Below the pieces are notes generated by a model that was given only the letters and a program-made list of their open reading frames with translations, was not told the DNA's origin and ran no database searches. A DNA stretch of 64,000 bases from Octopus vulgaris (lineage: Eukaryota), in NCBI GenBank assembly GCA_951406725.2, contig OX597816.1:174902001-174966000 (forward strand), written 5' to 3'. Both the position numbers and the translations under genes were made by a program. This document shows positions 4,824 through 31,426 of the stretch, piece after piece (position 1 is the first letter of the stretch; each line of letters starts with the position of its first letter).

Positions 4824-5302
4824 ATGCACATAGTGTCTATCTATGATGTTTCTCCATTAGTGAATGAAGCTCATGTGTCCGCATGCATTCCACGCATTAT
4901 TATTGCTGGTTTTCAGAGCACTAGAATTCTGCCATTCAATAGTGACATATTTTCAGATGGAGATTATGCACCAGCAGATGTCTCAGGCAAAGAATATCAT
5001 GCAGGTTCGGATCCAAATGGAAGCACAGCAGGCCCAGCAAGGAACCCTGATGCACCCACAGCAGGCCCAGCAGAGAACCCTGATGCACCCACAGCAGGCA
5101 TGGCAGGGAATCCTGATGTACCTACAGCAGGCCCAGCAAGGTACCCTGATGAATCCATAGCAGGCCCAGCAAGGAACCCTGATGCACCCACAGCTAGCCC
5201 AACAGGGAACCCTACTATAAATACTGTGGGTTATTACAACCCCAGATGCTGGTCCATCATCTACATATGTATCACCTAGGGATATACAGCCTTTACCTAA
5301 AT
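4824..5302 (+). repeat. Duplicated fragment of the pogo-like transposase region (copy of about 7370-7853), including the 33-bp minisatellite
   Basis: Near-identical to 7370-7853 (ILPFNSDIFSDGDYAPADVSGKEYHAGSDPNG followed by AGPARNPDAPT repeats). Confidence 0.9.
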
Positions 5303-6375: not shown

Positions 6376-8420
6376 ATGCCACAGATCTACAAAAGGAAAT
6401 CGGATTGTGGGAGTGATGCGCTATTGCTTAATTGAGCAGCAAAAGCAGTCCAAGAGGGGAACAGTGTTTGGGCTGCCACACAAGCATTTGATGGAGACGG
6501 AATGACACTCGAGCAGTTTATGGATAGACAGAAAAGTGATCCTCAAGGAGAAAACGGATATAAGAACTGTCAACTGAAGAATATGATATTCCTCCCAGAA
6601 ATGGAAAGCGAGCTAGCAGATCACACAAAAACAACAAGCTTCGAAAGACAAATGTCAAAGCTTAGTGTATGAATATGCTGTGGAGAATGGAATTGATGTT
6701 CCTGATAACTGGAAAACAAGCAAAAAAACAGGGTAAAGTTTACAGTTGAGCTTCAAAAGTCACCATAACTGTGTTTAATTGTCATACCGTGTGCCAGTTT
6801 TACAATAACCTTGCCGAAGTAATGAATCGACACAGATTTGAAGCACAGGATATATACAATCTTGATGAAACAAGATGCCATACTGTATAAAAGCCTGGAA
6901 TCATGAAAGTTGGCTCAGTCACATCGGGCGAAAGAGGTGAATTGGTGACTGTTGTTAACGCTGTCAATGCTGGTGGTGGAGTGCTTCTGCCCTTCCTGAT
7001 TTTTCCCTGTGTGAACTATTGTGATCATTTCATACATGGAGCACCAGTGGGCTCCAATGGGCTCCAATGGAGAAGCCACAAGATCAGGATGGTTCAATGA
7101 ATAAACTTTTGTGAAGTACCTTCAATCATTTCATGAAACAAACACATTGCTCTCCAGACAGAAAGATGTTCCTCATTCTAGATAATCATGACGCTCATGT
7201 TTCAATAGCAGCAGTTGAGAAGGCAAAGGCAAATGGCATTGTGCTGTTAACAATCACCTCACACACACCCCACAAACTTCAACCCTCAGACAAGACGATA
7301 TATGGACCATACAAAAGGGCCTACTCATGAGCAAAGAATGGGTGGATGCGATCCAATCCTGGCAAAACGGTGTCCACCTATGATGTTTCTCTGTTAGTGA
7401 ATGTCTCTGTTAGTGAATAAAGTTCAAATGTCAGTATGCATTCAACGTAATATTCTCACAGGTTTTCAGAGCACTGGAATTCTGCCATTCAATAGTGACA
7501 TATTTTCAGATGGAGATTATGCACCAGCAGATGTCTCAGGTAAAGAATATCATGCAGGTTCAGATCCAAATGGAAACACAGCAGGCCCAGCAAGGAACCC
7601 TGATGCACCCACAGCAGGCCCAGCAGAGAACCCTAATGCACCCACAGCAAGCATGGCAGGGAATCCTGATGTAACCACAGCAGGCCTGGCAAGGTAGCCT
7701 GATGAATCCATAGCGGGCCCAGCAAGGAACCCTGATGCACCCACAGCTAGCCCAGCTGGGAACCCTACTATAAACACTGTGGGCTATTACAACCCCAGAT
7801 GCTGGTCCATTATCTACATATGTATCACCTAGGGATATACAGCCTTTACCTAAAGCAGGGCCCCAGAAGATGAAAGTTCCCAACAGAAAGAGAAGTAGTA
7901 CTAAAATATTGACTGACACACCACTTAGAGATGAGATTGCAGCAGCAAAAGTAGCCAGAGAAAGGAAGAATGAAGCCAAGAAACTCTCTGCCACAGCAAA
8001 GAAATCTTTGTTCACAAAGATCACAAGAATCAACAGCAAAATGATGCCATATGATGACAGTACATTGTCCAATGAAAGTGAGTCTGAGATGAAAATAATT
8101 TATGACAACATTGATGACACTGGAGAAGAAGATCAGAGTATCATCAAAGATGATTTTGTCATAGTCAAAGTCTCAGGGAATCTTTCACTACATCGCGAGA
8201 GTTGATGAGTTTGAAGGAGATGAGTTTGAAGGAGATTTTCTTCGTTGTGTGTTGAGCATGCATAACTGCTCTACATTTGTTGTAGATGCCAAGGATGAAG
8301 CACTTTGGTCAAAGTCAGACATCGCAAAGAATTACAAATGCCAGCCATTCTTGGAACATCCCGCCGCACATATTTTCAGTTTCACTGTAATCTCAATGGG
8401 TGGAACCTGCAGTAATTTTG
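6376..8420 (+). pseudogene. pogo-like transposase pseudogene
   Basis: MPQIYKRK start, IYNLDET, ERGELVTVVNAVNAGG, LILDNHDAH, HKLQPSD...YGPYK; many stops and frameshifts. Confidence 0.82.
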
Positions 8421-8664: not shown

Positions 8665-8939
8665 TGTGGTGTGGTGTTGAAGGAGTGTGACGGAGCGGGA
8701 GGGAGCGGAAGTGGGTCTTGCAGGTCTTGCAGGGCGCATGCGCCGGCGGAAGCGGAAGTGACAGACAGAACGCACGTGCGGCATTGACCAGGCCAGACAG
8801 ACTCGAGAACGACGCGAAGACGACAAGATGCTAGCAAGTTGGCTGAAGGCGAATCCGACTTCATCTCCTCAGGTAAGACCAAATTACACTTCTAATTCTT
8901 TCCTTGTTCTGTTACGCTCCTTTCACCACACATATTACA
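8665..8939 (+). repeat. 5' LTR
   Basis: Four substitutions relative to 12643-12917 by eye, all transitions, three at CpG. Confidence 0.95.
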
Positions 8940-8951
8940 AGCTATTTCGGC
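8940..8951 (+). promoter_or_regulatory. Atypical primer-binding site AGCTATTTCGGC, complementary to nt 1-12 of tRNA-Phe
   Basis: Abuts the 5' LTR. Its reverse complement GCCGAAATAGCT is the 5' end of metazoan tRNA-Phe(GAA). No TGG-type PBS is present. Confidence 0.7.
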
Positions 8952-8989
8952 AAAATAATCACTCGGTTTCGTAAAAAAAAAAAAAAATT

Positions 8990-9745
8990 ATGCAGGCTGC
9001 TATGATTTCACGCGACCCTATAACACCGTTTTGCGGCGACACCGACGTGGTCGCTTGGTTGAGGAGGGTAAAATTGGTGGCGAAGCTACACGGCATAGCT
9101 GACCTGGCTAGTTTTATGCCGTTGTATTTGGATGGCCCGGCGTTGGCGTTATATCTGGAGATGGAGGAGACGGACCAACTCAGCGCGGACAAGGTGGAGA
9201 TCCGACTTATGGAGGCCTTCGCGGAAGGAATGTTTGAAGCGTACACTCGACTGGGTAGAATGAGGTGGACAGGACAACAGGTGGACGTGTTCGCCGGCGA
9301 GCTTAGAAGGTTGGCTAAACTTGCGGGATATGAGGGAGAGTCGCTAGAACGCACGGTCAGGTTAGCGTTCGTGACCGGCTTTCCCGACATCATGTCGGTC
9401 GAGCTACAGAAGCTCCCGAACGTGCGTTCGATACCGATGGCCGAGATCATATCGCGGGCATGTGTACTGGTGTCGTGCAGCAGGTTGATGTCGGTAGCAG
9501 CGACTGTAACGTCGAAAAGTGGCCCAGCTAGGAGCAACGGAGAGGGGCTGGGGAAAGAACGCGTGCGATCGTTCAAGGGACAGTGTTTCCGGTGCCAGGG
9601 CCCACACATGGTCCGTGACTGCGCGTCGCCCAAGCCTGAGGTGATTTGCTACCGGTGTCGAGAGCCGGGGCATGTGGCCAGCGAGTGTCTGCGGGGAAAC
9701 GGACCGCGGGAGACTACTGCGCCGGTAGTTGTCCCTTTGGATTAG
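8990..9745 (+). CDS. gag: Gag with two CCHC zinc knuckles, 251 aa
   Basis: CFRCQGPHMVRDC and CYRCREPGHVASEC. Confidence 0.92.
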   Translation: MQAAMISRDPITPFCGDTDVVAWLRRVKLVAKLHGIADLASFMPLYLDGPALALYLEMEETDQLSADKVEIRLMEAFAEGMFEAYTRLGRMRWTGQQVDVFAGELRRLAKLAGYEGESLERTVRLAFVTGFPDIMSVELQKLPNVRSIPMAEIISRACVLVSCSRLMSVAATVTSKSGPARSNGEGLGKERVRSFKGQCFRCQGPHMVRDCASPKPEVICYRCREPGHVASECLRGNGPRETTAPVVVPLD

Positions 9746-12606
9746 TAGCTGCGCGTTTCTCATCGTTACCTGTGGTCGACATTCTGGTGAAGGGGAAGAT
9801 GTCGCGAGCCCTGGTGGACACGGGCTGTACGACGACCCTGATGACCACAGAAGTGGCAGAGACGTGGAGTGGAGGAAGCAGTGTTAGGGCAGTCGACGGA
9901 AGAGAAGTGCACTGCGAAGGGGTTACGGATGCGCAGATTGTGGTGCAGGGACTGCAGCTGACGTTGCAAGCGATTGTGGTCGGTCACTTGGTGGACGAGA
10001 TCGACGTGGTGATGGGGATGGATGCGATCACCCGTCTGGGAGGTGTTACCATCAACGAGGCTGGCGTAACGTTTGGGCTAGCAGGGAAGCCGCGTAGGGC
10101 GAGACCACGCACCGACGACAACCGTGAGGAAATGGATGCGGCGCACACCATTGAAGACCAGGATTTTCGGGCTGTCTTTGATGGCGAGAGGTGGACAGTG
10201 GAGTGGCACTGGAAGGGAGAGCCCCCGATGTTAAAGAACAAAGTGGGCTGCTATCAGCATACTCTAAAAGGAAATGCCAGAAGTGAGTTCGAGGGGGAGG
10301 TGGAGCGGTGGATTAAGGAGGGCATACTGATCCCCTGGGAAAAAGAAGAGAGCGGAGTCCTGCCACTGATGGCGGTGATACAGCCCACAAAGCGTAAGGT
10401 CAGGCCAGTGCTCGACTTCCGAGAGCTGAATGACCACGTGTCGTGTCATACAGGCGGCGAGGCCACGGATGTCTGCGGAGACACCTTGCGAGAGTGGAGG
10501 CAGACGGCGGGGGCCTCCACGATTGTCGATTTAAAGTCGGCATACCTTCAGGTGCATGTGGCTGAGAAACTATGGAGGTACCAGCTCGTCAGGTATAGGG
10601 GCCGGACGTACTGTCTGACCAGGTTGGGATTCGGGCTGAATTCAGCTCCGAAGATTATGGCAACAATTCTCAAGGCCGTCCTGGGGAAGGTGGACAGAGT
10701 AAAAAGGGCCACCAATTCATACATCGACGACATTCTGGTGGATGAAACCGTGATGCCAGCAACGGAGGTCATAGGCCACCTGAAGAGTTTTGGACTGATC
10801 GCCAAGCCGCCAGAGGCTATGGAGGGAGGTGCTGCACTGGGCCTCAAGCTATGGAGAGACAAAGCCGGCGCCTTGGTGTTCCGGCGAGGGAATGAGATCC
10901 CTGAACTGGGCGCCAGCATGAGTAGACGGGAGCTGTTCTCTGTGTGTGGGAAACTGGTGGGACACTACCCGATTGCAGGCTGGCTCCGGACAGCATGTAG
11001 CTTCATCAAGAGACGAGCCGAAGGAGTGAAGTGGAATGATAAAGTGGGGGAGAGGACGATCGACATGATGCAGGAAGTCCTGGTCAGAGTAGGAGCAGAG
11101 GACCCGGTGAGGGGCAGCTGGTATGTTCCCAAATCAAAGAGCGGGATCGTATGGTGTGACGCCAGTAGCATCGCAATAGGGGTCGTCTTGGAAGTGGGAG
11201 GTGTCACGGTGGAAGATGCAGCCTGGCTCAGGAAGATGGATGACTGCAGTCACATCAACGTGGCGGAGTTGGAAGCTGTGCTGAAGGGGGTGAACCTAGC
11301 CTTGAAGTGGGGGTTGCACACCATAGAAATCAGGACTGATTCGGCCACTGTACTTGGTTGGGCGACGGCAGTCATCACCGATGAGCGGAGGGTGCGGACC
11401 AAAGGGGCTGTAGAGATGCTGGTAAAGCGTCGATTGGGGATACTGCGTGAACTGACCACTGAGTTCAATCTGAAGCTGAGCGTGATCTTTGTGCCTTCCG
11501 AGAAGAACAGGGCAGACGTCCTGACCAGGGTTAAGCGAGCATGGTTGCAAGTGCCAGAGGATGCGAAGCAGGATGTAGCTGCAGTATGCCATCTGAGCGA
11601 CTCGGAGTTGCGGAGACTGCACACCATGCATCACATGGGTGTGGACAGGACGTTGTTCCTGGCCAGAAAAGTCGACTCCGACGTAACAAGACAGAGCGTG
11701 CGGAGAGTGGTTAGCAGTTGTGACAGGTGCCAGTCCATCGACCCTGCTCCGGTCGTGCATGAAGCGGGAAGTATTCCAGTGGACCAGGACTGGAGACGAC
11801 TGGCGGTGGACATAACACACTACCGGCAGGGGACATACCTCTCAATGGTTGACTGCGGACCGGGGCGGTTCGCCATATGGAGGGAGATGAGGTCAGGAAC
11901 CGCAGAAGAAATTGCGAAAGTGCTGAACGAGATATTCCTGGAACGAGGCCCCGTGGATGAACTGCTTCTGGACAACGGCACTGCATTTCGCTCGGAGGCG
12001 CTGAGAGAAATGCTTGATGAGTGGAAGGTCAACCGCTTCTTCAGGGCGGCATACCGGCCAAGTGGAAACGGGGTGGTGGAAAGGCATCATCGTACCATCA
12101 AGGCCATGGCAGAGAGGGGTCACATTTCACCAGTCGAGGCCGTGTTTTGGTACAACATGTCGCCCAGATCAGGACAGGCCGAGGAGTCGGTGCCACACAG
12201 GGCAATATTCAGGTACGAGTGGAGGCATCCGTGTACTACATCAACGCGACCCGGGGCAGAGGAAGAGCACGCCTTCGTGCAGGTCGGGGAGGAAGTCTGG
12301 GTAAAACCCCCAAACGCACGGTGTACATCGCAATGGGGAAAGGGGACAATAACCTCCGTAAATTCAAAGAATAACATCTCGGTCGATGGTATGCCATGCC
12401 ACGTTTTAGACATACGGAGGATTGTCCATGCCCCGGAGGATGGGACAAGCAACAGTGGGCAAGACGATAACAACAGACAGGATGACGAGGTCGGCAGCAA
12501 CACGCCAGAAACAAGTCCTAGGGTCGCACTGCGACCACAGAGGGTGCGGCACCCTCCTCCCTGGTTGGCTGACTATGAAACCAGTTTCAGGTGCGGGAGC
12601 AAGTGA
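9646..12606 (+). CDS. pol: Pol (protease-RT-RNase H-integrase), probably expressed as a gag-pol frameshift fusion
   Basis: ALVDTG protease; RPVLDFRELN, FGLNSAP and YIDD in RT; CDAS, AELEA, TDS and RAD in RNase H; HHCC plus D-D-E (VDI, LDNG, VER) integrase. Confidence 0.95.
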   Translation: MLPVSRAGACGQRVSAGKRTAGDYCAGSCPFGLVAARFSSLPVVDILVKGKMSRALVDTGCTTTLMTTEVAETWSGGSSVRAVDGREVHCEGVTDAQIVVQGLQLTLQAIVVGHLVDEIDVVMGMDAITRLGGVTINEAGVTFGLAGKPRRARPRTDDNREEMDAAHTIEDQDFRAVFDGERWTVEWHWKGEPPMLKNKVGCYQHTLKGNARSEFEGEVERWIKEGILIPWEKEESGVLPLMAVIQPTKRKVRPVLDFRELNDHVSCHTGGEATDVCGDTLREWRQTAGASTIVDLKSAYLQVHVAEKLWRYQLVRYRGRTYCLTRLGFGLNSAPKIMATILKAVLGKVDRVKRATNSYIDDILVDETVMPATEVIGHLKSFGLIAKPPEAMEGGAALGLKLWRDKAGALVFRRGNEIPELGASMSRRELFSVCGKLVGHYPIAGWLRTACSFIKRRAEGVKWNDKVGERTIDMMQEVLVRVGAEDPVRGSWYVPKSKSGIVWCDASSIAIGVVLEVGGVTVEDAAWLRKMDDCSHINVAELEAVLKGVNLALKWGLHTIEIRTDSATVLGWATAVITDERRVRTKGAVEMLVKRRLGILRELTTEFNLKLSVIFVPSEKNRADVLTRVKRAWLQVPEDAKQDVAAVCHLSDSELRRLHTMHHMGVDRTLFLARKVDSDVTRQSVRRVVSSCDRCQSIDPAPVVHEAGSIPVDQDWRRLAVDITHYRQGTYLSMVDCGPGRFAIWREMRSGTAEEIAKVLNEIFLERGPVDELLLDNGTAFRSEALREMLDEWKVNRFFRAAYRPSGNGVVERHHRTIKAMAERGHISPVEAVFWYNMSPRSGQAEESVPHRAIFRYEWRHPCTTSTRPGAEEEHAFVQVGEEVWVKPPNARCTSQWGKGTITSVNSKNNISVDGMPCHVLDIRRIVHAPEDGTSNSGQDDNNRQDDEVGSNTPETSPRVALRPQRVRHPPPWLADYETSFRCGSK
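9694..9755 (+). promoter_or_regulatory. -1 programmed ribosomal frameshift signal
   Basis: G GGA AAC heptamer in the gag frame, 7-nt spacer, stem-loop at 9708-9735; pol is in the -1 frame. Confidence 0.8.
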
Positions 12607-12642
12607 GGAAGCCGGTTCAGTGATCTATAGATCAGGGGGGCG

Positions 12643-12917
12643 TGTGGTGTGGTGTTGAAGGAGTGTGACGGAGCGGGAGGGAGCGGAAGTGGGTCTTGCA
12701 GGTCTTGCAGGGCGCATGCGCCGGCGGAAGCGGAAGTGACAGACAGAACGCACATGCGGCATTGACCAGGCCAGACAGACTCGAGAATGACGCGAAGACG
12801 ACAAGACGCTAGCAAGTTGGCTGAAGGCGAATCCGACTTCATCTCCTCAGGTAAGACCAAATTACACTTCTAATTCTTTTCTTGTTCTGTTACGCTCCTT
12901 TCACCACACATATTACA
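12643..12917 (+). repeat. 3' LTR
   Basis: Direct repeat of 8665-8939. Confidence 0.95.
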
Positions 12918-14859: not shown

Positions 14860-16476
14860 CTCCAAGGAAACTCTGTAACCTTTTTGCAATTATACTGAAC
14901 ATGTATCAACTTGGCAGTCCCCTACAGCTTTGGATGAAACATCATGAGGACATGGCTGAGGACTTAAAGTATGCAATTCAACAGGCAAACCCAGATATCA
15001 GTATTCAGTTCTCTGAAACAATGTTTAACCAAGCACTGACTGAAATTGAGGATTGAGTTCTGACCATGGGAGGCAAAAATTTGCAAGAGTCCTGCTCTGG
15101 ATTGCTGAAAACAAGCCATCAAATTAGTGATTTAACTTCAGGAGACATATCAAGAGAGACAAATTATAACATCACAGACTTGGCTACATTTGTGAATGAA
15201 CATGAACCTAAACTCCTTCCAGAACAATGCTGTGCATATGATAAAATTATTTTGTCAGTCAGAGAAAAAAGTGGAGGAATTTTTTTCTTGATGCTCCTGG
15301 TGGCACAAGTAAAGCATTTGTAACAACATTGCTTATCTCCAAGGTAAGGCAACAAAAAAGAATTGCAGTTGCTGTACCATTGTTTGGCATTGCTTCCACC
15401 CTTCTCCCAAGAGGACAAACAGTTCATTCTGCTTTTAAATTACTGCTAAACCTGGTCACAAATGACAGTCCAATTTGTAACATAAGCAAAGATTCAGGTT
15501 CAGCAGAATTGTTGTGCCAATGCCACCTTATCATTTGGGTTGAATGCACCGCGTCACATAGAGGTGCAATGGAAGCTCTTGGTAAGACCTTACAGGACAT
15601 CAGAGGCAACAATAAATCTATGGGAGGAGTTATATTGGTTTTATCAAGAGACTTCAGACAGACATTTCTAGTCATTCTGAGACGAACAAGATCTGATGAA
15701 ATAAAAGCATACATTAAGCAAGTCTTCACACTTTTGGAATAAAGTACTGAAATTCTCTTTCAATACTAATGTGTGAGCTTCATTACATGGGGACCAATGT
15801 GCAAAACAGTTTTCAACTGGTTCCTCCAATTAAAAAATGGAAAAGTACCATTTGATGGGAACAGTGATATCAATTTGGCTCATATTGTCAGACTTAAGTA
15901 ATGATTATAATTCACATAAATAGTTGTGTGAAAGGGCAATTCTTGCTCCAAAAAATGTGACAACAGCAAGGATTAACCATGAATTAATGAATAAGATTCC
16001 AACAGTCATTAAAAAGTACAAATCAGTTGATTCAGTCCTTGACAAAAATCAAGCTGACCATTACACAACAGAGTTTGTTAATTCTCTTGAGTCACCTGGA
16101 ACTCCTCCGCATAAACTTTTTTCTGAAGGTAGGAGTCCTAATAATGCTTCTAAGAAAGTTAGATCCTCCTAAATTATGCAATGGGACAAGGTTGATGTGA
16201 TATAAGCTGTCATCATTACTGGATGTGCCTCTGGAGAAGAGGTTTTTATTCCAAGAATTCCAATCAAACCAACAAGCATGCCATTTGAGTTCAAAGGAAC
16301 ACAATTCCCAGTGTGACTTTGCTTCACAATCTACTGGCTTGCACTTAATTGAGCCTTGCTTTTCTAGTGGTCAACTTTATGTTAGTTGCTCCAGGGTTGG
16401 TAGTTTGCAAGATATATTTGTCTATGCTCCAAACCAGAAAATAAAGAATCTTGTTTACCCAGAAGCTCTTACGTAA
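14860..16476 (+). pseudogene. Helitron RepHel PIF1-type helicase remnant
   Basis: FFLDAPGG, GIASTLLPRGQTVHSAFK, DFRQ, ERAILAPKN, GTPPHKL, LCNGTRL, GQLYVSCSRV; frameshifted. Confidence 0.88.
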
Positions 16477-29407: not shown

Positions 29408-29434
29408 AATTCTTAAACAAGATCGAAGAAATAT

Positions 29435-31426
29435 GTGCAAAAAATATTCCTCTTAAGAAAACCAAATCCACAAAAAAAACCTGTACCACGGGAGCGAAAG
29501 ATCCTGATGCGCAAAAGGTCAAGACTAAGAAACAAAACATCTAAGCTGACATCAAAACATGAATTACAGAAAGTCCTTGACCAAATATACAGATTAGAAG
29601 ACAATCTAAAACAACACTATGATGAAGAACGTAACAATGCAGAAAAGAGAGCCATAGAAAACATCAAGAAAAACCCAAAATGTTTCTACAGTTTTGCAAA
29701 GAAATACTCGAATACCAAGTCAACAATAGGACCTCTCCAGAGACAAAATGGGGATGTAGTGAATAACCCTATTGAAATGGCAGAAATGTTGGGTCAACAG
29801 TATGAAAGTGTCTTCAGTGAGCCATCTAAAACCACGAAGATCCATGACCCAGGAAAATCCTTCAAGGATATCGACCATACTAAACCTACCCTATCCGACA
29901 TTGATTTCAACCCAGAAGACATAGAAAGAGCCATAGACAAGCTCTCCATGCACTCGGCTGCGGGGCCTGACGGTTTCAATGCCATGATACTTAAAAACTG
30001 CAAGGTACAATTGTTGAAACCCCTTTACATGATATGGAGGGAATCTATGGAGAATGGCAAAATACCAAATCCATATAAAGAAGCACACATAACTCCAATA
30101 CATAAAGGGGACAGCAAATCAAAACCAAAGAACTACCGACCAATCTCACTGACATCACACATTATCAAGGTCTTCGAAAGAATAGTTCGTGGAAAACTGG
30201 TTGAGTTCCTGGAATCTAACAATCTGATGAATTGCAACCAGCATGGATTCAGGTTAGGTAGATCATGTCTTTCCCAACTACTGGCACACCATGACCAAAT
30301 CCTAGAAAATCTAGAGAATGGATACAACACAGATGTTATTTACCTCGACTTTGCCAAGGCATTTGACAAGGTAGATCATGGCATCCTGGGTCACAAACTT
30401 CGAAAGCTAGGAGTAGGAGGAAAAGTTGGTACATGGATACATGAGTTCCTTACAAATAGAACTCAAACAGTCACTGTGAATGGAACCCATTCAACACCAT
30501 CACCTGTGACCAGCAGTGTTCCTCTGGGTACAGTACTCGGCCCAATCCTGTTTCTCATCCTCATCTCTGACATAGATGAAGATACAACCAGCAATGTCTC
30601 ATCCTTTGCTGATGACACCAGGGTCATGAGACAAATCAAAGACGAGGTGGATACAGAGGCCTTACAAAAGGACCTGACCACCATATATAAATGGCAGGAA
30701 ACAAACAACATGTTGTTCAATGATAAGAAGTTTGAACTAATTCGCTACGGAACAGATCAAGATCTGAAAAATACAACAAACTACAGAAACCCATCAGGAC
30801 AACAAATAATGGAAAAACAGTATGTGAAAGATTTAGGCATCCACATGGGAACCAGCCTAAAATTCAGAGAACACCTTGACTCAGTCTGTCTTACTGCAAG
30901 AAAGTACAGCGGGTGGATCTTGCGCACCTTCAAATCAAGAGATACCTCAACAATGAAAACCCTCTGGAACGGTATGATACTTCCGAGGATTGACTACTGT
31001 TCTCAGTTGTGGTCACCAACAACAAAGGGCCAACTATCTAAGATGGAATCGCTCCTTAGAAATTTTACCTCATACTTCTCAGAAACGAGGGACCTGGACT
31101 ATTGGCAAAGACTCAAAACCTTGAAGATGTACTCAATAGAAAGAAGATTTGAGCGATACCGAATTATATACATTTGGAAAATGATAGAGCAAAAGGTGCC
31201 AAACTTTGGTATCAAAACCTACTACTCACTGCGCCACGGAAGACGCTGCCAGCTACCACCAATCAACAAAAAGGCTGGCCAGGCAGCAAAAACCCTGCGA
31301 GAGTCAAGTCTGTTGGTTCGAGGAGCACAACTATTCAACTCCATTCCGGTACATGTCAGAAATCTATCAGGATGCAGTGTGGAATCATTCAAATTGCAGC
31401 TGGATAGATACTTAAGCACCCATTAG
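29435..31426 (+). CDS. LINE reverse transcriptase, 663-aa open segment
   Basis: NYRPISLTS, QHGFR, DFAKAFDKV, VPLGTVLGP, FADD, YCSQLWSP. Confidence 0.9.
   Translation: MQKIFLLRKPNPQKKPVPRERKILMRKRSRLRNKTSKLTSKHELQKVLDQIYRLEDNLKQHYDEERNNAEKRAIENIKKNPKCFYSFAKKYSNTKSTIGPLQRQNGDVVNNPIEMAEMLGQQYESVFSEPSKTTKIHDPGKSFKDIDHTKPTLSDIDFNPEDIERAIDKLSMHSAAGPDGFNAMILKNCKVQLLKPLYMIWRESMENGKIPNPYKEAHITPIHKGDSKSKPKNYRPISLTSHIIKVFERIVRGKLVEFLESNNLMNCNQHGFRLGRSCLSQLLAHHDQILENLENGYNTDVIYLDFAKAFDKVDHGILGHKLRKLGVGGKVGTWIHEFLTNRTQTVTVNGTHSTPSPVTSSVPLGTVLGPILFLILISDIDEDTTSNVSSFADDTRVMRQIKDEVDTEALQKDLTTIYKWQETNNMLFNDKKFELIRYGTDQDLKNTTNYRNPSGQQIMEKQYVKDLGIHMGTSLKFREHLDSVCLTARKYSGWILRTFKSRDTSTMKTLWNGMILPRIDYCSQLWSPTTKGQLSKMESLLRNFTSYFSETRDLDYWQRLKTLKMYSIERRFERYRIIYIWKMIEQKVPNFGIKTYYSLRHGRRCQLPPINKKAGQAAKTLRESSLLVRGAQLFNSIPVHVRNLSGCSVESFKLQLDRYLSTH

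Follow-up and report, generated by a model that had tools for sequence, protein, structure and literature searches.

A primer-binding site complementary to nucleotides 1–12 of tRNA in an octopus LTR retrotransposon and its relatives

How does an LTR retrotransposon begin minus-strand DNA synthesis when the site beside its 5′ LTR pairs with the 5′ terminus of a tRNA? The question is raised by a 4,253-bp element at positions 8665–12917 of a 64,000-nucleotide stretch of the Octopus vulgaris genome (the window; contig OX597816.1), in which the Pol domains follow the Gypsy order (Table 1). In a systematic survey, LTR elements fall into three primer types, namely a whole tRNA, half of a tRNA severed in its anticodon stem, or a self-primer (PMC6317226). 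The site described here, complementary to tRNA nucleotides (nt) 1–12, is real, is found across the element's clade and lies outside these three catalogued types.

Table 1 Features of the retrotransposon, in window coordinates
Feature	Position	Strand	Detail
Left target-site duplication, CAAAA	8660–8664	+	
5′ LTR, 275 bp, TG..CA	8665–8939	+	4 differences from the 3′ LTR
Primer-binding site (PBS), flush with the LTR	8940–8951	+	Exact complement of host tRNA-Phe(GAA) nt 1–12
gag open reading frame with CCHC zinc knuckles	8990–9745	+	zf-CCHC profile match; ATG at 8990
Candidate −1 frameshift heptamer, G GGA AAC read in the gag frame; a hairpin is predicted after it	9694–9700	+	
Open pol frame of 988 aa between stops, encoding protease, RT, DUF7047, RNase H and integrase	9640–12606	+	
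Polypurine run AGGGGGG plus 2 nt (CG) ahead of the 3′ LTR	12634–12642	+	
3′ LTR	12643–12917	+	4 differences in 275 nt from the 5′ LTR
Right target-site duplication, CAAAA	12918–12922	+	

The LTR ends can be taken as exact because a 5-bp target-site duplication (TSD) surrounds 33 of the 36 host copies tested. The heptamer is likely to act as the −1 gag-pol frameshift site, judging from its sequence context: the predicted hairpin follows 7 nt downstream (window 9694–9760), and 18 of 21 relatives have a slippery heptamer close to where gag ends, with the reading frame judged in the window element alone. DUF7047 covers Pol residues 428–484 (window 10921–11091) and corresponds in a predicted model to a helical segment that lies after the RT core and before RNase H, which would place it at the position of the RT thumb. 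This domain marks the Pol proteins of the element's clade, and no mention of it was seen among the papers listed by a full-text literature search.

Pol identity is 98% among many host copies, and in several the two LTRs do not differ at all, indicating that the host family is young; it looks recently active. One copy (L039, G000:C1:25606401–25611788) has an internal deletion that joins the PBS region straight to pol, together with LTRs that are 99.6% identical and a TSD, and is possibly a mobilised non-autonomous derivative. Two others (L023 and L024, about 1 Mb apart on opposite strands of G000:C1) share their flanks and their TSD, and so represent a segmental duplication or an assembly duplicate, not two insertions. 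Elsewhere in the window, a 669-codon frame with a strong RVT_1 match (29417–31426, E 2e-29) is probably a non-LTR retrotransposon by its sequence, and a PIF1-like helicase fragment (15245–15742, E 7e-33) possibly derives from a Helitron. Upstream of the insertion lies a 451-bp direct duplication (4851–5301 and 7404–7854, 93% identical) with 33-bp tandem repeats inside, and no Pfam match was found for the frames that overlap it.

The 12 nt that adjoin the last base of the 5′ LTR read AGCTATTTCGGC, the reverse complement of which is nt 1–12 of host tRNA-Phe(GAA), giving 12/12 Watson–Crick pairs. The site has no TGG start and, in the window element as in its relatives, does not pair with a 3′ CCA tRNA end. 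A tRNA-Phe 15-mer has 94 matches in the 2.8-Gb host genome, against 0 for the reversed control, and for each of the 10 loci fetched ARAGORN calls a tRNA-Phe(GAA) that begins where the match does. About 46 matches to this 15-mer, at 200-bp spacing, form a tandem array at G000:C18:30147732–30157146. Pairing ends at the LTR side, where C13 of the tRNA stands opposite the terminal A of the LTR and tRNA nt 13–15 (CAG) are unpaired with the LTR end ACA. At the opposite side, 8 of 8 tRNA-Phe genes are immediately preceded by A, and yet the base after the PBS is free (A 20, C 10, T 6 and G 2 in 38 loci chosen for carrying the site), so that the PBS matches the mature tRNA's 5′ end.

The calculated duplex energy of the PBS with the tRNA is −18.7 kcal/mol, compared with −10.7 kcal/mol for its best partner within the LTR, where the closest complement has 8/12 Watson–Crick pairs and a longest run of 7. 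CA followed by the 12-mer occurs 287 times in the host genome against 14 times for the control, and the site keeps its LTR-edge position in metagenome and MAG relatives that are 37–57% identical to the window element in Pol; together these results argue that the PBS is not a chance match. The bare 12-mer has 482 genomic matches and its reversed-pattern control 2,485, hence no contrast comes from that control. In these respects the first-pass annotation holds up. It had placed a 12-nt site without TGG flush against the 5′ LTR, at an edge now fixed by the TSDs, and had read the match as running from tRNA nt 1 exactly to that edge, as it does, with no pairing beyond either end; the tRNA-Phe start that it gave is the one that the host genes carry; and its statements that the LTR contains no complement of the PBS and that the match is no accident are both borne out.

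Across 49 host loci spanning 66–100% Pol identity, CA plus the exact 12-mer is present in 42, five have one or two changes and two lack the site, these last being loci without a detectable LTR pair. All host-genome families included in the tree belong to a single clade, and their match to host tRNA-Phe therefore counts once: it is one match to a host tRNA, which the family retained as it diversified. Other PBS variants have 17 matches in the host genome against 8 for the control, so there is no abundant second PBS type. Two element copies carry a PBS that matches a minor host tRNA-Phe gene. We dropped copying from such genes as evidence for the primer, since T-to-C changes are as common at other positions of the site (three to four elements at position 6, one at position 4 and none at position 8), and the minor-gene matches consequently give no support for run-off copying.

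A protein search that scored 8,000 candidates returned 553 relatives at E ≤ 1e-30. The named relatives come from Argonauta, which provides the best named homologue, Petrolisthes, Oratosquilla, Hydra and Macrosteles, and a search of viral contigs found none. We collected the DNA of relatives from 75 metagenome and 3 MAG contigs (78 loci, some of them near-duplicates). A gag start is present in 35 of the 78, and because one contig begins inside gag, 34 have upstream sequence. The full PBS lies upstream of gag in 31 of these 34, the other three differing in the last bases only, and it stands behind CA in all but two of the 31. The LTR edge of relatives was located by a 3′ junction for one family (L050 versus L051) and otherwise from the preceding CA. 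In 13 of the 78 loci the longest match to the complement of host tRNA-Phe is exactly nt 1–12, never reaching nt 13, and the AG opposite tRNA nt 12–11 is kept in nearly all loci. The contigs L124, L125 and L126 are eukaryotic retrotransposon contigs inside two bacterial MAGs, most likely through contamination from a eukaryote.

Nucleotides 4–6 of a tRNA are acceptor-stem positions, which differ between species and isoacceptors. It is almost only opposite these nucleotides that the relatives differ, in five PBS forms: TTC (12 loci), CGC (9), CAC (4, plus L126), CCC (3) and CCG (2). The CCG form corresponds to the start of tRNA-Lys(UUU), being an exact complement (12/12) of the human tRNA-Lys3 start printed in PMC8715211. 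On a 33-row integrase tree the PBS form changes at least 11 times, and a single clade of TTC rows is rejected (p-AU 0.002, for a group named after an earlier tree had been seen). Because their integrase matches were short, L075, L116 and L126 were omitted from the first tree and L338 and L339 from the second, which was also built without near-duplicate rows. L063, the sister of the host clade, has the CCC form, as does the more distant L051. This pattern is what the tracking of different host tRNAs would give, and it suggests covariation.

Scans for tRNAs that match the variants were negative. The first, of IMG/VR, found bacterial-type tRNAs (80 of 120 loci examined). A second IMG/VR scan found 28 eukaryote-type tRNA-Phe genes with ten other 5′ ends, none of them CGC, CAC, CCC or CCG; the constancy of nt 7–12 in these 28 genes is uninformative, because the search pattern fixed those positions. 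The 28 contigs that hold them (L254–L281) are in many cases labelled GVMAG. Two MAGs that contain relatives yielded no matching tRNA among 30 of 44 matches scanned, and a supplementary table of tRNA 3′ ends, in the rows searched, holds none for the CGC, CAC, CCC and CCG variants as Phe (PMC13524379). The proposal in the first-pass annotation that the primer is the 5′ end of tRNA-Phe is supported, in that the motif is conserved in distant relatives, host tRNA-Phe begins with the matching 12 nt and the element's own LTR holds no complement. Two amendments apply: with five variants in the clade, the partner is not throughout a TTC-type tRNA-Phe end, and the chemistry, whether a cut or a branch and by whichever enzyme, is putative.

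Minus-strand synthesis must begin at the LTR edge or no more than about 2 nt away from it. The nucleotide paired at that edge is U12, which in an intact tRNA has no free 3′-OH, and this leaves a tRNA cut after nt 12, a host-made fragment or priming from a 2′-OH. From the sequence evidence we consider it probable that the primer is a 12-nt 5′-terminal piece of tRNA. That this piece is the primer and that the element's own RNase H makes the cut, by analogy with Tf1, is a fuller claim to which we would give an even chance. In this scheme the PBS would invade the acceptor stem and D-stem of the tRNA, and a cut at the edge of the duplex, between U12 and C13, would free a 3′-OH on a host RNA supplied in trans. 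RT would then extend from U12 into the terminal CA of the LTR. Plus-strand synthesis would later run off the 5′ end of the primer, regenerating a 12-nt site that matches the host tRNA and ends at nt 1. Given the two variable bases that separate the purine run from the 3′ LTR, integrase might remove 2 nt, in which case the primer would stop at nt 10, although the AG opposite nt 12–11 is nearly always kept. All 40 aligned proteins retain the RNase H catalytic residues D507, E543, D567 and D626, which the proposed cut requires; this is no proof of a primer cut because ordinary replication needs RNase H anyway.

The same 5′ piece could instead be made by the host, through a nuclease cut in or near the D-loop and trimming of the 3′ tail to the duplex edge, or through packaging of a ready 12-nt fragment. 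D-loop cuts are known to give short 5′ tRNA fragments, and a host-made piece agrees with all of the sequence evidence; the half-tRNA primers of copia-type elements also arise by tRNA cleavage, according to the survey (PMC6317226). We nevertheless think it unlikely, given that an identical end point at the duplex edge throughout the clade suits a cut directed by the annealed structure and that 5′ fragments are usually longer than a free 12-mer would be. Leaving the tRNA uncut is a further way to start at U12: its 2′-OH would prime and create a branched 2′–5′ RNA–DNA link resembling retron msDNA. Branch priming by retron RTs is established, and such a reaction would need no nuclease and would give the register seen in the sequence, but we know of no demonstrated case in an LTR-type RT and the predicted fold is that of an ordinary PR–RT–RNase H, making this very unlikely.

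Other readings detach the site from tRNA priming. The PBS might serve packaging or dimerisation by binding the tRNA 5′ end or a different RNA, with the primer lying elsewhere, such as the 3′ end of another RNA. The primer is known here by inference from sequence, 101 of the 482 genomic matches to the 12-mer lie outside the LTR-junction and tRNA-Phe patterns, and the scans found no host tRNA for the four variant forms other than TTC, all of which this reading accommodates. It is made quite improbable by the junction itself, which offers no alternative site (TGG start, palindrome or self-complement), by a match that stops at the exact LTR edge across the clade, as expected of a primer end, and by variation that falls at acceptor-stem positions. 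The least credible account seems to us to be that the element primes itself from its own transcript in the manner of Tf1, or that the site is conserved for other reasons and resembles a tRNA by coincidence. The length and flush position do resemble those of the Tf1 site; however, the LTR offers only 6–9 of 12 pairs in the window element and 32 relatives (using as the LTR of relatives up to 400 nt upstream of the PBS), for 31 of the 32 the self-duplex energy does not leave the range spanned by 30 shuffles, and real tRNA starts are matched at 12/12 by two different variants. This lack of an LTR complement largely rules out self-priming in cis. A primer cut from the tRNA 5′ end at the LTR edge remains the reading that we prefer.

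Taken to its full extent, that reading describes a clade of DUF7047-type LTR retrotransposons, extending from Hydra to arthropods and cephalopods, with a fourth priming mode in which RT/RNase H would pair the genomic RNA with an intact host tRNA's 5′ terminus, cut after nt 12 and extend. We advance this as a tentative model, one that falls a little short of an even bet. If true, Tf1 chemistry would be acting on a host RNA, and a retroelement would encode a source of tRNA fragments; the model would also bring priming by tRNA fragments into Gypsy-order elements and connect the half-tRNA mode with that of Tf1, with a bearing on how non-canonical primers are made and possibly on how self-priming evolved. 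The first-pass annotation knew of no description of such priming, and our search agrees: among the papers listed by full-text searches, with Repbase, GyDB and the Cigr-1 paper outside their scope, we found no description of a PBS complementary to a tRNA 5′ terminus, and the 12-mer appeared, as far as found, only in tRNA probe or construct contexts. A pipeline described in PMC13524379 compares the last 12 nt of tRNAs only, and the clade would score as PBS-less in pipelines of this kind.

The element has the TG..CA ends, PR–RT–RH–IN order and CCHC gag of Ty3/gypsy elements (Metaviridae), and its 5-bp TSD falls in their range of 4–6 bp. The predicted model, with a mean pLDDT of 77, shows no tether between RT and RNase H: a single helical stretch (residues 429–486) is followed by RNase H from about residue 500. 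The RVT_1 match of the RT is weak (E 5e-5), RNase H (window 11140–11520) matches the RVT_3 and RNase_H profiles and not the gypsy-type RT_RNaseH, and the nearest solved sequences and structures in a fold search are retroviral, at 11–15% identity. Domain order, ends, TSD and the absence of a tether therefore fit Ty3/gypsy, with a divergent RT and RNase H, and on this sequence evidence the clade may be a deep lineage. We take the size of Cigr-1 to be near 4.2 kb, like the window element, and regard the Cigr-1 clade as a candidate identity. It is reported from cephalopods and tunicates, and seven of its families are listed for Octopus bimaculoides in PMC6238403 supplement 3. Troyka is likewise a divergent animal LTR retrotransposon without a tether domain, but its CG..CG ends and 3-bp TSDs, as given in PMC12440569, led us to reject it as the identity of an element with TG..CA ends and 5-bp TSDs. 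We also rejected the Saci2/lennie clade, as the 4-bp TSD and fused Gag-Pol of Se_Saci2 (PMC12471100) are not matched.

Among known priming systems, canonical 3′-CCA priming, including that of the tRNA-Phe-primed errantiviruses in PMC13524379, likewise uses a host tRNA and a site that adjoins the LTR and is about 12 nt long. The site described here differs in facing the opposite tRNA end and in pairing with no 3′-OH of an intact tRNA. Half-tRNA priming is described for copia, Ty5, Osser, Bryco, Bianca and fungal Helenus, with sites that pair with the anticodon stem-loop, and in the survey it is reported for Copia-type lineages only, with which the other source agrees (PMC6317226, PMC10886601). 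Common to both cases are a primer that would be a 5′ fragment of a host tRNA and a site without a TGG start; here, by contrast, the site pairs with nt 1–12 and covers the whole predicted primer, and the Pol has the Gypsy order, in which integrase does not precede RT. In Tf1, the RNA's first 11 bases pair with the PBS, and the cut by RNase H falls between bases 11 and 12 (PMC7175516). Tf1/sushi elements share with the window element a short site at the LTR edge paired to an RNA 5′ terminus and a Gypsy-order Pol (PMC7175516 and PMC4600332), and the primer proposed here would likewise be freed by a cut after 11–12 nt; they differ in that the partner here is a host tRNA in trans, with no complement in the LTR and no chromodomain match. 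The proposed priming would be a kind of hybrid, with traits of half-tRNA priming and of Tf1 self-priming, and belongs to neither.
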